A stretch of 26,525 nt of DNA from Bacillota bacterium (GTDB taxonomy: Bacteria > Bacillota > Clostridia > Oscillospirales > Butyricicoccaceae), in NCBI GenBank assembly GCA_030705725.1, contig JAUZPW010000001.1, forward strand, positions 1 through 26,525, given 5' to 3'. Shown here in pieces: positions 15,061 through 22,663 of this stretch. The number at the start of each line of letters is the position of its first letter. Position 1 is the first letter of the stretch. A program made the position numbers and the translations under genes. The notes beneath the pieces are model-generated. The model saw only the letters and a program-made list of their open reading frames with translations, had not been told where the DNA came from and did not search any database.

Positions 15061-16335
15061 TCAAAACAGCATGCTGCCAAAAACAAATTTATGCGCTATA
15101 TTCTCATTCCCGGATAAATAAACGGCCCTTTCAAGACGTTCTCTGCAAGTCAGCTTTTGCGGATGCCTCAGACCGCTGTCGTCGATAACGACGGCGTCAA
15201 ATTCAAAGCCCTCATCAAATCCTCCCGCAAAGCCGAAGAATTCCCCGCCGCCTTTAGTCCCGAGGTAAAAAGCCTCCTCAAAGCTGAGCGGCTTTAAGCC
15301 TTCGTCAATAAGCCTCCATCTAAGCTTTGAAACCTGAATCGCGTCCGTCATCGCGCGAAAAATCGATTCGTGCGCTCCCCCCGCTATGTCGCTTCCGAGT
15401 CCGGTTTTTACGCCTTTATCCAGAAACGTCCTGACCGGAGCTATACCGGACGCCAGATTTTCGTTTGACTGCGGGCAGTGGGCTATAAAAACGCCTCTTT
15501 CCCTGATTCTCTCTATTTCACGGTCGTCCGAGCCGACACAGTGAGCCATCACGGTTTTAACGCCCCCGCCGAACAGGCCGAACCTGTCGTAGGCGTCCGC
15601 GTAAAACTCAGCGTCGGGGCAAAGCTCTTGCACCCACTCGATCTCATTTCTGTTTTCCGAAAGATGCGACTGAACCGGAAGATCGTGCTTAACCTGTATT
15701 TCTTTAAGCAATTTCATAAGCTCGTCGGAACAGGCCGGAATAAATCGCGGCGTCAAAATCGGTTTTATCCTTTCGCAGCGCCCTTCGCAGCGCGTTATCC
15801 ATTTCTCCGTGTCCGATGCCGCCCGCGCAGCGCTTTCTTCGGTCAGGTAATCCGGGCTGTTTCTGTCCATGTTAACTTTTCCGACGTAAGCGATCATTCC
15901 TGTTTTTTCGAGGCAGTCCATAAGGATCTCCGTCGCGCCCGCGTGAATCGTTGAAAACACGCAGGCCCTCGTGGTTGCGCCCGCCCTTATGTCCCCGGCA
16001 AAAATTTCATACGCTTTTTTTGCGTATTCTAAATCTTTGAAACGCCCTTCCTCCGGGAAGGCGTGGTTATTAAGCCAGCTTAAAAGCTCGGTATCCGTAT
16101 AAAGCGCGCGGAAAGCATACTGAGATGCATGCAGGTGCAAATCGCAGAGGCCAGGAATAACAAGCATCCCGGAATAGTCTATAACCTTAAGTCCTGTATA
16201 TTTATCAGGAATTTTTTCAAAAACACCTTGTGAAATTCCGTCCGTGCAAATAAGGTAATGGTCAGAAAACGATAAAAGCGTGCTTTTATCCCTGCTCCAG
16301 CATATATCGCCTTTTATGATAAAGTCGCGGCTCAA
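15061..16335 (-). CDS. guaD: Guanine deaminase (amidohydrolase)
   Basis: DLHLHASQY, TPRF, SHLSEN, MAHC, GSDIAGG, EEAFYLGT; TTG start at 16335 behind GGGAGGG; adjacent to xdhABC. Confidence 0.85.
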   Translation of the reverse strand: MSRDFIIKGDICWSRDKSTLLSFSDHYLICTDGISQGVFEKIPDKYTGLKVIDYSGMLVIPGLCDLHLHASQYAFRALYTDTELLSWLNNHAFPEEGRFKDLEYAKKAYEIFAGDIRAGATTRACVFSTIHAGATEILMDCLEKTGMIAYVGKVNMDRNSPDYLTEESAARAASDTEKWITRCEGRCERIKPILTPRFIPACSDELMKLLKEIQVKHDLPVQSHLSENRNEIEWVQELCPDAEFYADAYDRFGLFGGGVKTVMAHCVGSDDREIERIRERGVFIAHCPQSNENLASGIAPVRTFLDKGVKTGLGSDIAGGAHESIFRAMTDAIQVSKLRWRLIDEGLKPLSFEEAFYLGTKGGGEFFGFAGGFDEGFEFDAVVIDDSGLRHPQKLTCRERLERAVYLSGNENIAHKFVFGSMLF

Positions 16336-16351
16336 ACGTTTTCCCTCCCAA

Positions 16352-16380
16352 ATTATACAAATACTTACATAAATAGACAA
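16352..16380 (-). promoter_or_regulatory. Putative internal sigma-A promoter for guaD-xdhABC
   Basis: Minus strand TTGTCT (16380-16375), 17 nt, TATAAT (16357-16352), in a 120-bp AT-rich gap. Confidence 0.55.
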
Positions 16381-16386
16381 ATTCGA

Positions 16387-16405
16387 ATCCAAAAATCCTC
16401 TGTAA
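16387..16405. promoter_or_regulatory. Single degenerate copy of the 19-bp candidate operator
   Basis: ATCCAAAAATCCTCTGTAA matches 14/18 of ATMCAAAAANTTTTTGKAT; 6 bp upstream of the guaD -35. Confidence 0.3.
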
Positions 16406-16455
16406 AAATTGTGCCGATAAACTGTTTTGATTTATTATTGGTAATGCGGTAAAAG

Positions 16456-20156: not shown

Positions 20157-21326
20157 TTACTGGCTTACAACAGTAATGCCTTTAAGAACCTTGTCAAACT
20201 TGGGAGCGCTGCCCGGATCTTCATAGGTTTCGCCCGACTTCACAACTTCGGTTCCATTGTTGTCGTAAAGCGGTCCCGTAAATACGTCCCAGCCGCCGAG
20301 GATTTTATCTCTTGCTTTCTTGATGGCGTCGGCTGTCCCGCCGGCAACCGTGGCTTCGTTCAGCGCCGATACGTCTACAACGCCCTCGGCCAGTCCCTGT
20401 GACCAGTCGGCGGGGATAGTTTCACCGTTAACAACGCTTTTTACCGCATAAGTCAGATAAACGCTCCAGTCCCATACGGCCGAGGTTAAAACGGCTTTCG
20501 GGGCGGCGGCTATCATATCGGAGTTGTACCCTACGCCCCAGATCCCTTTGGACTCTGCCGTGGTCTGGGTTGCGGTGCTGTCGCAGTGCTGGCCTAAAAC
20601 GTCGCATCCCCTGTCGATAAGCGCCTGAGCCGCCTGGGATTCAGCCGTCGGATTATTCCAGCTGTTCGTATAAATAACGTCCATTGTCACCTTGGGGTTA
20701 ACCGAAAGAGCGCCGAGATAGAAAGAGTCGAAGCCGCTGATGCACTCCGCGAAAGGCTGTGCGGAAACATATCCGAGCTTGTTTGTCTTTGTTTTTAACC
20801 CGGCGGCTATGCCCGAAAGGTAGCGCGCCTGATAGATCTTGCCGAAATAGTTGTGCACGTTTTTAAGGCCGGAGCTTGCGGCCTGAAAGCCTGTTGCATG
20901 GCAGAACTGAATATTCGGATACTCGGCGGCAACCGCAAGCACATAGTCCTCGAAGCCGAAGCTGGTAGCAAAAATAATGTTGCAGCCTTGCTCAGCCAGC
21001 TCGCGAAGCGCGCTTTCGCAGGAATCGTCCTCCTTGATATTATACTTGTTGACGATCTGATCATCTCGGAGATTAAGGTTTTTCTGCATTTTTTTGGTAC
21101 CAAGATCATGGTTATATGTATAACCCTTGTCGCTGGGGTCTGAGATATGGACAAAACCGATCTTGATGTTGTCAAGCGTAACCTTACCTGCGGGTTGAGT
21201 GCCCTGTGCGGAGCCTGACGCTGTATTGGTGTCTGCCGAAGAACTGGTTTGGGCCTTCTTGCCGGAGCATGCCGCGAAGGATAGTACCATTGCAAGAACT
21301 AAAACAATTGCCAGTGGCTTTCTCAT
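20157..21326 (-). CDS. BMP-family ABC substrate-binding lipoprotein (purine/nucleoside)
   Basis: Signal MRKPLAIVLVLAMVLSFAA-C20 (lipobox); DKGYTYNHDLG, NIIFATSFGF, YQARYLSGIAAG, CDVLGQH; start 21326 behind GGAG. Confidence 0.9.
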   Translation of the reverse strand: MRKPLAIVLVLAMVLSFAACSGKKAQTSSSADTNTASGSAQGTQPAGKVTLDNIKIGFVHISDPSDKGYTYNHDLGTKKMQKNLNLRDDQIVNKYNIKEDDSCESALRELAEQGCNIIFATSFGFEDYVLAVAAEYPNIQFCHATGFQAASSGLKNVHNYFGKIYQARYLSGIAAGLKTKTNKLGYVSAQPFAECISGFDSFYLGALSVNPKVTMDVIYTNSWNNPTAESQAAQALIDRGCDVLGQHCDSTATQTTAESKGIWGVGYNSDMIAAAPKAVLTSAVWDWSVYLTYAVKSVVNGETIPADWSQGLAEGVVDVSALNEATVAGGTADAIKKARDKILGGWDVFTGPLYDNNGTEVVKSGETYEDPGSAPKFDKVLKGITVVSQ

Positions 21327-21451
21327 TTCATCATCTCCAAATTTATTTACGCCGCGAAAAGCAGCGTTAATTCTTCTTTTTTGTCTGGAAACTCTCCACA
21401 AAAAAATTAAAAACTGCCAAAATATACGTCATAGTGCTTCACGAAGACATG

Positions 21452-21521
21452 AAGACTTATAGACAACTATTTACGGTAGTTTGTAGAAACGCTCAACCAA
21501 TTTTGGGCATATATAAATCCC
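21452..21521 (-). ncRNA. Purine riboswitch aptamer, guanine-type (C74)
   Basis: Minus strand GGGATTTATA-TAT-GCCCAA-AATTGG-TTGAGC-GTTTCTAC-AAACTA-CCGTAAA-TAGTTG-TC-TATAAGTCTT: 10-bp P1, conserved J2/3 GUUUCUAC, L3 CCGUAAA, L2 ending in GG, U22/U47/U51/C74; upstream of purine transport and catabolism genes. Confidence 0.9.
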
Positions 21522-21542
21522 GATAATATTCTGTTTGTTTCA

Positions 21543-21571
21543 ATTGTACTATTTATTTTTATTTAATGCAA
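21543..21571 (-). promoter_or_regulatory. sigma-A promoter for the riboswitch-bmp-ABC-guaD-xdh operon
   Basis: Minus strand TTGCAT (21571-21566), 17 nt, TACAAT (21548-21543); predicted TSS near 21536, about 15 nt before P1. Confidence 0.7.
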
Positions 21572-21588
21572 TATTTTATTCATGGGCA

Positions 21589-21625
21589 ATACAAATTCTT
21601 TTTGCTATCCAAAAAATTTTTGTAT
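21589..21625. promoter_or_regulatory. Candidate tandem operator (second copy)
   Basis: ATACAAATTCTTTTTGCTATCCAAAAAATTTTTGTAT; 21607-21625 is a near-perfect 19-bp palindrome; 17 bp upstream of the -35. Confidence 0.5.
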
Positions 21626-21645
21626 TTTCTGTGTATGTCACCCGG

Positions 21646-22281
21646 TCATTCAATATTTCCGGCGCGCGGCAAATTCCATTTGAAGTATGCGGATAAAAAT
21701 CGAAGCAGAACAATTACCGCAATGCCTGTAAGCATTGAGAAGGTGCTGCCCGCGTTATGCCACATTAATACGCATATGACGGCGCCGGCGATTGAAGCGC
21801 AGGCGTAGACGTGCTTTACAAATATGTACGGCGTGTTGCCGGCGAGCAGGTCGCGCAGGACTCCGCCGCCCACGCCGGTTATAACGCCGACAAACACCAG
21901 TAAAAAACAGTTAAAACCGTTCGATTTTTCATACGCGGTATAAATCCCCGTGACGGTAAACACTCCAAGTCCCAGAGTATCCATTATAAATAAAATTCTC
22001 TCGTATATGGTGCGGTTGCGGGTTAAATATTTGTTTGCCCCAGGTATAAATATTAATATTGCCGTGAATATGGAAATCAACGCGTATACAGGGTTTTGAA
22101 AAGTTTTCGGCGGCGTTATCCCCAAAGTCAGGTCTCTGATGATGCCGCCGCCCACGGCGGTCGTCAGTCCCAGGATCACGACTCCGAAAATATCCATTTT
22201 CTTTTTCAAGCCCGTCATTGCTCCTGAAAAAGTGAATGCAACGGTTCCGACGATCTCAAGCAAAAAAATCAAGGTTTCCAT
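21646..22281 (-). CDS. TRIC / UPF0126 (YadS/YicG-like) membrane protein, putative glycine transporter
   Basis: Internally repeated GTVAFTFSGA...TAVGGGIIRD and DTLGLGVFT...TGVGGGVLRD; about 211 aa from ATG 22281 (RBS GGAG); preceded by a glycine riboswitch. Confidence 0.88.
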   Translation of the reverse strand: METLIFLLEIVGTVAFTFSGAMTGLKKKMDIFGVVILGLTTAVGGGIIRDLTLGITPPKTFQNPVYALISIFTAILIFIPGANKYLTRNRTIYERILFIMDTLGLGVFTVTGIYTAYEKSNGFNCFLLVFVGVITGVGGGVLRDLLAGNTPYIFVKHVYACASIAGAVICVLMWHNAGSTFSMLTGIAVIVLLRFLSAYFKWNLPRAGNIE

Positions 22282-22296
22282 ATCTTTTTCTCCAAT

Positions 22297-22338
22297 AAAA
22301 AAGCACATCGGTACTAAATATAGTGTACGCGATGTGCT
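22297..22338 (-). terminator. Intrinsic terminator of the glycine riboswitch expression platform
   Basis: Minus strand AGCACATCG-c-GTAC...GTAC-CGATGTGCT followed by a T-run; the 5' arm overlaps the 3' strand of aptamer-II P1. Confidence 0.8.
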
Positions 22339-22496
22339 CTGTCTTGGTACCTGAAAGATTCTTTTGCATAAAAACAAAATTACTTCGTCGGTGCATCAAA
22401 TGCTTTCCAGAGCTCTGTCCGGATTCAGTCCTTTTACCTGAGAGTTTCTGCCCCTTCGGTGCTTCCCGCTGAAAGTCTCTCCCGAATCCATCATCC
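22336..22496 (-). ncRNA. Tandem glycine riboswitch with leader-linker (kink-turn) element
   Basis: Minus strand leader GGATGA; aptamer I P1 GGATTC/GAATCC with GGGAGAG, CACCGAAGGGGCA, CTCTCAGG, AAAAGGAC; linker GGAC; aptamer II P1 GCTCTG/CAGAGC with GGAAAG, CACCGACGAAG, TCTTTCAGG. Confidence 0.92.
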
Positions 22497-22508
22497 ATAT
22501 TTGAAATT

Positions 22509-22537
22509 ATGATAATATATTTTTATTTAAATGTCAA
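22509..22537 (-). promoter_or_regulatory. sigma-A promoter for the glycine riboswitch-TRIC unit
   Basis: Minus strand TTGACA (22537-22532), 17 nt, TATCAT (22514-22509), just upstream of the riboswitch leader. Confidence 0.7.
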
Positions 22538-22663
22538 ATTTTATATAATATAATATTGTTTGTTTACTTATAAGAAGCTCTATTACTGTTGCTGCTATTT
22601 GCAGCTTTTTCTTTTATAATATCTGTGGTATATTAAAAAACAAACTCTGAAAGGATAATCGCT

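Follow-up and report, generated by a model that had tools for sequence, protein, structure and literature searches.

A guanine-type purine riboswitch with a predicted transcriptional ON layout before an ABC importer and purine-catabolic genes in a clostridial genome

The guanine-I riboswitch is the textbook OFF switch for purine supply. The add adenine riboswitch of V. vulnificus and C. perfringens reportedly activates a purine-deaminating enzyme, adenosine deaminase, as Mandal and Breaker are said to have described in 2004. The characterised guanine-I members, of the Bacillus subtilis xpt-pbuX type (RF00167), turn off biosynthesis, salvage and uptake genes, and xanthine dehydrogenase is an uncommon association of this class (PMC9295807). 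The ON switches published on the purine scaffold are those for adenine (pbuE and add), 2'-dG-III, xanthine-II and guanine-II (PMC9295807), together with the 8-oxoguanine riboswitch (PMC10556655). In the B. subtilis pbuE (ydhL) adenine riboswitch, which acts on transcription of an efflux pump, the hairpin P4 is the toehold for a terminator strand that invades P1, and shortening P4 impairs the switching (PMC7707468). In Paenibacillus, the 8-oxoguanine riboswitch has a guanine-I-derived aptamer and precedes a purine deaminase of the amidohydrolase type; P1 plus P3 exclude the terminator, and in vitro transcription identified the riboswitch as an ON switch (PMC10556655). Xanthine-II and guanine-II, found in Paenibacillus and a few other genera, are predicted to be ON switches as well, and xanthine-II occurs with xanthine dehydrogenase and further genes of purine degradation (PMC9295807). 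Thus an ON platform on a guanine-sensing aptamer is not unprecedented, since the guanine-II, xanthine-II and 8-oxoguanine variants have been published (PMC9295807; PMC10556655). A canonical guanine-I aptamer acting as an ON switch before guaD or xdh genes was not described in the literature that we searched, although such a description could exist elsewhere.

The window that we analysed is a stretch of 26,525 nucleotides (contig JAUZPW010000001.1), and the leader discussed here lies on its minus strand. We consider it quite probable that this leader acts as a transcriptional ON switch of the pbuE kind, with a purine aptamer of the guanine type. The reading is built on the aptamer match, on a competing hairpin and its stability, and on the conservation and covariation of that hairpin in relatives. 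The parts of the aptamer are the following:

21440-21536, minus strand: purine riboswitch aptamer (RF00167 match)
21519-21512 and 21461-21454, minus strand: 5' and 3' strands of P1, 8 bp, from the fold
21511-21509, minus strand: J1/2, UAU
21508-21491, minus strand: P2, formed in the fold, with one C·A mismatch
21490-21483, minus strand: J2/3, GUUUCUAC, 8 nt, canonical sequence
21482-21464, minus strand: P3, formed in the fold
21463-21462, minus strand: J3/1, 2 nt, U21463 (U73) and C21462 (C74)

The match to the Purine family (cmscan, 21536-21440, minus strand) reaches 52.7 bits, where the gathering score is 37, and spans model positions 1-102, with E-values of 1.7e-6 and 2.9e-8 in two runs. 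It is the only Rfam match between 21250 and 21700, even at E <= 1, and the only purine riboswitch in the whole 1.97-Mb genome of 394 contigs. The window copy shares with guanine-I the three-stem junction, the J2/3 sequence with U47 and U51, U22, C74 and the L2/L3 kissing contact; all four ligand-contacting nucleotides (U22, U47, U51 and C74) are intact, and the kissing nucleotides are kept as UGG in L2 and CCG in L3. The differences from guanine-I lie in the output, which here is an ON platform before catabolic genes where the characterised members are OFF switches (PMC9295807), and in the core of the aptamer. Canonical guanine-I aptamers bind hypoxanthine and xanthine as well (PMC12445698), and within the ON-switch reading the ligand is most likely guanine, hypoxanthine or xanthine.

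Three positions of the window aptamer are non-canonical, namely U73, the A54·G72 opposition at the base of P3 and the C·A mismatch in P2. The guanine-I class has the purine A73 and a C54-G72 pair closing P3, and the window copy has U73 and A54·G72 at these places. In solved structures the purine at position 73 stacks above the ligand (PMC12445698). Among about 59 aptamers sampled from the order, position 73 is nearly always a purine (44 were parsed as AC and 8 as GC), and U73 occurs in the window copy alone. Positions 54-72 are C-G in 42 of these aptamers, while A54·G72 recurs in one other, the first aptamer of a tandem in genome G256. The canonical relatives score 50-58 bits against RF00167, and the window copy is equal to them. 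The three changes could have weakened or altered ligand binding; alternatively, they could be assembly errors in a genome of 394 contigs. Whether the window copy still binds its ligand is the main doubt about the ON-switch reading.

The other described classes were compared at their defining nucleotides. An adenine riboswitch was rejected because C21462 occupies position 74 in place of U; pbuE, by comparison, has U74, and the add riboswitch, which resembles the window in having a purine aptamer that activates a deaminating enzyme, is adenine-specific and in its Vibrio example acts on translation. A 2'-dG reading was likewise rejected on its defining nucleotides. The 8-oxoguanine class shares with the window a guanine-I-derived aptamer before an amidohydrolase-type deaminase gene and the overlap of the terminator with both P1 and P3, but it is without U47 and rejects xanthine and hypoxanthine (PMC10556655); it was set aside as U47 is present here and the deaminase scores 340 bits with the guanine model against 108 bits with the 8-oxoguanine model. 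Xanthine-II and guanine-II share the scaffold and the predicted ON response, but both have extra nucleotides inserted in J2/3 and J3/1, and xanthine-II has U51G besides; the window aptamer has none of these. Xanthine-II, defined by U51G, a 2-nt insertion in J2/3 and an insertion in J3/1 (PMC9295807), was rejected in view of the U51, the 8-nt J2/3 and the 2-nt J3/1; guanine-II, with one inserted base in J2/3 and 3-4 in J3/1, was rejected since there are no insertions. If A54 and G72 are counted as unpaired, J3/1 becomes 3 nt long, one above the canonical 2, whereas guanine-II has 3-4 nucleotides inserted.

The elements that would make up the expression platform are these:

21428-21464, minus strand: hairpin as first described, from sequence and fold
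21411-21482, minus strand: full terminator hairpin, 72 nt, 29 bp, dG -21.1 kcal/mol
21400-21413, minus strand: U-tract UUUUUAAUUUUUUU, from sequence, predicted termination zone
21437-21454, minus strand: small hairpin directly 3' of P1 (CUUCAUG, loop UCUU, CGUGAAG; 7 bp), from the fold

The earlier note had drawn a hairpin with a 5' arm at 21464-21448, a UCUU loop at 21447-21444 and a 3' arm at 21443-21428, and its letters and coordinates are exact. Folding with RNAfold places this hairpin as the inner two thirds of the longer one at 21482-21411 (minus strand). At the base of the longer stem AAACU (21482-21478, P3 5' arm) pairs with AGUUU (21415-21411), and the stem runs directly into the U-tract UUUUUAAUUUUUUU (21413-21400), whose first three U can pair with A21480-21482. 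The stability of the terminator corresponds to z = -4.2 for 72 nt and -4.7 for 77 nt, when a few U are added, and none of 200 dinucleotide shuffles folds as well. It is AU-rich, and its outer arms alone are weak, with a duplex energy of -5.4 kcal/mol. A simple terminator scan of 21100-22600 returned no terminator, which we attribute to the long, imperfect and AU-rich stem and did not take as absence.

The longer hairpin changes two of the original statements. The caveat of a weak U-tract referred to GUAUAUUUU at 21427-21419, which pairs with L3 (AAAUA and CCG) and therefore belongs to the 3' arm and not to the tail; a good U-tract, UUUUUAAUUUUUUU, follows it. The transcript end, which had been placed near 21420, is now predicted at about 21408-21400, because the hairpin reaches 21411 and the U-tract occupies 21413-21400. 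The claim that the hairpin and the ligand-bound aptamer exclude each other holds: the 5' arm of the terminator consists of the P3 5' arm, L3, the P3 3' arm, J3/1 and seven of the eight 3' nucleotides of P1, and C74 (21462) itself pairs with G21430. Since the terminator consumes P3, J3/1 with C74 and the P1 3' strand, the two structures cannot coexist. It is the only hairpin of the leader that abuts a U-tract.

The leader has the elements of a pbuE-type platform: one arm of the terminator is an aptamer strand, the U-tract follows directly, and a hairpin that could serve as toehold adjoins P1. This small hairpin (21454-21437) is compatible with P1 in the fold, and relatives have a hairpin of other sequence at the same place. 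With pbuE the window leader thus shares a transcriptional ON layout with putative strand invasion from a toehold hairpin after P1 (PMC7707468). Unlike pbuE, its terminator reaches back to the P3 5' arm and swallows the whole P3 hairpin, and its aptamer has C74. The ON layout claimed in the earlier note is therefore upheld in a stronger form, as the terminator competes with both P1 and P3 and is kept before guaD in relatives.

Transcripts of growing length were folded from a start at 21536. The minimum-energy fold is the aptamer (8 of 8 P1 pairs and 5 of 5 P3 pairs) until the 3' end reaches about 21440, and it is the complete terminator once the 3' end lies at 21410 or beyond. At full length the terminator state has -25.5 kcal/mol and the enforced aptamer -19.0, a gap of 6.5 kcal/mol; with P1 alone constrained, the aptamer state has -15.6. 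By our own estimate from the published guanine-I affinity, nanomolar ligand binding could reverse the gap of 6.5 kcal/mol.

The proposed mechanism would run as follows. RNA polymerase would start about 15 nt upstream of P1, so that the aptamer is made first, and guanine, hypoxanthine or xanthine in the pocket would lock P1 and P3. Without ligand, the hairpin at 21454-21437 would act as a toehold that nucleates invasion of the aptamer, like P4/L4 of pbuE. The strand 21435-21411 would then zip through the P1 3' strand, C74, the P3 3' arm, L3 and the P3 5' arm to give the 29-bp terminator, and transcription would stop in the U-tract at 21413-21400. Bound ligand would block this invasion and permit read-through into the genes of the Bmp-type ABC importer, the guanine deaminase and xdhABC. 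In this way the purine would induce its own uptake and its oxidation to urate.

The genes that would be switched on lie directly downstream:

20157-21326, minus strand: lipoprotein substrate-binding protein of a Bmp/PnrA-type ABC transporter, first gene of the operon (Pfam PF02608, 1.7e-50)
20100-18535, minus strand: ABC ATPase with two ABC domains (Pfam PF00005)
18538-17426 and 17463-16456, minus strand: two permeases (Pfam PF02653)
15061-16335, minus strand: guanine-deaminase-like amidohydrolase (NCBIfam TIGR02967, 340 bits)
14958-12655, minus strand: XdhA (NCBIfam equivalog, 1233 bits, above cut-off)
12642-11755, minus strand: XdhB (NCBIfam equivalog, 439 bits, above cut-off)
11762-11277, minus strand: XdhC (NCBIfam equivalog, 256 bits, above cut-off)

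Pfam and NCBIfam bear out the earlier gene assignments of a Bmp/PnrA-type importer, a guanine-deaminase-like amidohydrolase and XdhA/B/C. The deaminase score is just under the TIGR02967 cut-off of 375 bits, and the same protein reaches 108 bits with the 8-oxoguanine deaminase model. The likely start of its gene is the TTG at 16335, after GGGAGGG, and not 16392. We found no convincing intergenic terminator among the same-strand downstream genes, and all eight could be read as one transcript. The gap before the deaminase gene (16336-16455) contains a promoter-like site, TTGTCT, 17 nt and TATAAT (16380-16352); a start from it would cut the Shine-Dalgarno sequence of the deaminase. Because Bmp/PnrA-type binding proteins are described as nucleoside binders, the operon may import nucleosides instead of bases. 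The remainder of the window forms a purine-degradation island with an SsnA-like amidohydrolase, a YheO-type regulator, a DpaL-like enzyme, an M20 peptidase and also a selenium-linked cassette.

Two further elements flank the switch:

21543-21571, minus strand: candidate sigma-70 promoter read from the sequence, TTGCAT (21571-21566), 17-nt spacer, TACAAT (21548-21543)
21350-21366, minus strand: GC-rich 6-bp hairpin (CGCUGC, loop UUUUC, GCGGCG), from sequence

The candidate promoter would start the transcript about 12-18 nt before P1; a consensus scan did not return it because its -35 hexamer matches at 3 of 6 positions. The gene upstream is a TRIC/Gly_transporter gene, itself under a glycine riboswitch. 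No hairpin plus U-tract was found at 21540-21646, between the stop of this gene (21646) and the aptamer, therefore upstream read-through would meet the terminator of the purine switch. Just upstream of the candidate promoter lies one copy of an AT-rich 37-bp repeat (21589-21625), which is inverted relative to its counterpart at 1391-1427 and identical to it at 28 of 37 positions; it could be a protein operator. On the other side of the switch, the GC-rich hairpin ends 11 nt before the bmp Shine-Dalgarno sequence GGAG (21338-21335) and may be a remnant of the importer's own leader; short hairpins stand at the same place before the bmp ribosome-binding site in relatives (L003-L007). The Shine-Dalgarno sequence lies 116 nt beyond P1 and is unpaired to the aptamer in every fold.

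To place the leader among its relatives, we searched for RF00167 in 121 genomes from the family and in 151 from the order, and all leaders were extracted, their first genes identified and their terminators located. The design of the window leader recurs before guanine-deaminase-like genes in nine leaders of genus g7 and three of genus g18, two genera of the family to which the window belongs, and in a tandem pair in G241, a genome from a different family of the order. All the guaD-linked leaders that we sampled in g7, g18 and G241 fold like the window leader: their distal arm is a repeat of the P3 3' arm and, just before a U run, pairs with the P3 5' arm plus L3; U7-type tracts stand at the place of the window U-tract. 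In two of the three genomes checked, xdhABC follows guaD, directly in G037 and after a permease in G241. We folded 17 ON-type leaders singly, drawn from both of these genera and from further families of the order, with a group before FAD-oxidoreductase genes among them; every one gave a single long hairpin from the P3 5' arm to the U-tract (z -1.2 to -6.4). The OFF layout, with a compact terminator wholly downstream of P1, is that of the xpt, AzgA-type permease and most Bmp leaders of the order.

The position of the switch before a Bmp importer is another matter. Neither a regular-expression search nor Rfam found a purine riboswitch at the 18 closest Bmp orthologue loci (56-69% identity), and none was found in the two same-genus genomes searched, whose Bmp paralogues are at just 43-46% identity. 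So far, the exact arrangement in the window is unique, and it looks as if the switch belongs with guaD-xdh and has come to lie before an importer operon in this genome. At the closest Bmp orthologue locus, from a sheep gut MAG (L031:1-1500), a guaD homologue (52% identity) is divergent from bmp; this wiring of bmp and guaD differs from that of the window, and there is no riboswitch.

Several other leaders of the order show variations of the purine platform. In G241 (L114:1296-1544, minus strand), a tandem of two complete guanine-type ON riboswitches precedes guaD, an NCS2 permease and xdhABC; each unit has a terminator of its own that overlaps its aptamer, and a 3-nt J3/1 (UGC and CGC). In G256 (L112:1420-1652, plus strand), two back-to-back purine aptamers share one terminator before an NCS2-type permease; the distal arm of this terminator, CUGUUUGCGGCAG, matches P3/L3 of both aptamers, so that either empty aptamer would be able to feed the terminator and the tandem would be an AND gate. 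In seven loci (L010, L019, L020, L024, L025, L028 and L030) a guanine-type aptamer near position 1500 precedes the gene of an uncharacterised, FAD-dependent oxidoreductase some 460 aa long (Pfam Pyr_redox and FAD-depend_C, no NCBIfam name), which may have a part in purine catabolism. Terminator and aptamer overlap in L019, L020, L024, L025 and L030; L010 and L028 were assigned to the overlap class from a weaker automatic fold only, which runs into the coding region. The guaD leaders of genus g15 (L011, L013 and L021) have a different platform, in which the terminator begins at the end of P1 and a P1 extension (CGGA with UCCG) would sequester the terminator 5' arm, possibly making an ON switch by P1 extension.

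To quantify the conservation of the terminator, we built a covariance model for the terminator state from 11 sequences of g7 and g18, with the window left out. In the window this model matches 21482-21402 (41.1 bits, E 9e-7), and it also finds the G256, G241 and two other ON-type leaders; at E <= 1 it finds none of the 32 leaders classed as OFF-like or unclear. For the 12 outer terminator pairs, pairing holds in 89% of cells, compared to 25-48% with slid partners, and compensatory double changes occur in six of the 12 (14 cells), a level that none of 500 shuffles reaches; these covariation figures are upper bounds, as the sequences are related and the structure under test guided the alignment. 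The outer pairs change from AAACU/AGUUU in the window to CAACUG/CAGUUG in g7, CCAACU/GGUUGG in g18 and GCUGCCG/CGGCAGC in G241. The same positions of the P3 5' arm show covariation with the P3 3' arm too, as is expected because this strand is shared between two structures. RNAalifold on a MAFFT alignment returned the aptamer P3 and not the terminator, because MAFFT had set the distal arms out of register; per-sequence folds and a model-based alignment were used in its place. When duplex energies of the outer arms were compared between own and other partners, the permutation test gave p ~0.0004 overall, with a weak contrast for the window. Covariation of the hairpin in orthologous leaders had been proposed earlier as a check: the outer pairs do covary across the ON leaders of relatives, but the leaders of the closest Bmp orthologues are without a purine riboswitch.

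One could argue that the switch has decayed or become constitutive, with the aptamer disabled by its three non-canonical positions and the 72-nt hairpin left as a mere terminator or attenuator. That hairpin would end the glycine-riboswitch/TRIC transcript and keep the purine operon low, and relief would come from another factor, for example a protein at the upstream AT-rich repeat. Such an account draws on the fact that U73, A54·G72 and the P2 mismatch are absent from the g7 and g18 relatives, that no terminator was seen between the TRIC stop and the aptamer, that the repeat is common to the other end of the island, and that the arrangement is unique among Bmp orthologues. However, no change has touched the ligand-contacting nucleotides, J2/3 or the loop-loop nucleotides, the Rfam score is on a par with those of canonical relatives, A54·G72 also occurs in the first aptamer of the G256 tandem, and a dead aptamer would strand the importer and catabolic genes behind a strong terminator. 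Thus we regard decay as rather unlikely.

It could also be that the leader is an ON switch with a shifted preference, in which U73 and the unpaired A54 and G72 reshape the layer above the ligand and favour xanthine, hypoxanthine or another oxidised purine over guanine. In guanine-II, specificity does change with small alterations around a pocket that itself stays the same (PMC12445698), variants before xanthine dehydrogenase genes sense xanthine (PMC9295807), and U73 has no equal among the sampled aptamers. Yet U51G, the J2/3 insertion and the 3-4 nt J3/1 insertion are all absent and U47 is present, the junctions are fully canonical in relatives whose genes follow the same logic, and hypoxanthine and xanthine are bound by canonical guanine-I aptamers already (PMC12445698); such a preference therefore seems improbable. 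An OFF or translational switch, in which the ligand lowers expression as in xpt or pur leaders, would agree with the behaviour of all characterised guanine-I riboswitches (PMC9295807). It is nevertheless very hard to reconcile with a leader that has no hairpin plus U-tract compatible with the folded aptamer and a Shine-Dalgarno sequence so distant from P1 and so consistently unpaired to the aptamer; moreover, the OFF-type leaders of the order look quite different and are missed by the terminator-state model. The pbuE-like ON switch with a guanine-type aptamer remains our preferred reading.

The window switch is a real but moderately novel use of a well-known RNA family, and its relatives share the design. 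We suggest, as a tentative and rather speculative extension, that canonical guanine-I catabolic ON switches may constitute a purine-breakdown regulon, undescribed as far as we found, across an order of gut Clostridia, with guaD, xdhABC, purine permeases, the FAD oxidoreductase, tandem units and a two-aptamer one-terminator AND gate. Here the switch would have moved before a nucleoside-type ABC importer, and its core with U73 and A54·G72 may shift the preference among guanine, hypoxanthine and xanthine. The natural set of ON and OFF platforms with one aptamer in one bacterial order suits studies of expression-platform evolution and could be of use in building guanine-inducible tools. For purine-degradation islands the leader offers a simple and testable regulator. 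In gut-type Clostridia a guanine-I pocket on a pbuE-like platform appears to induce anaerobic purine breakdown, from guanine via xanthine to urate, together with an importer, and this guanine-to-urate pathway is relevant to the urate balance of the host.
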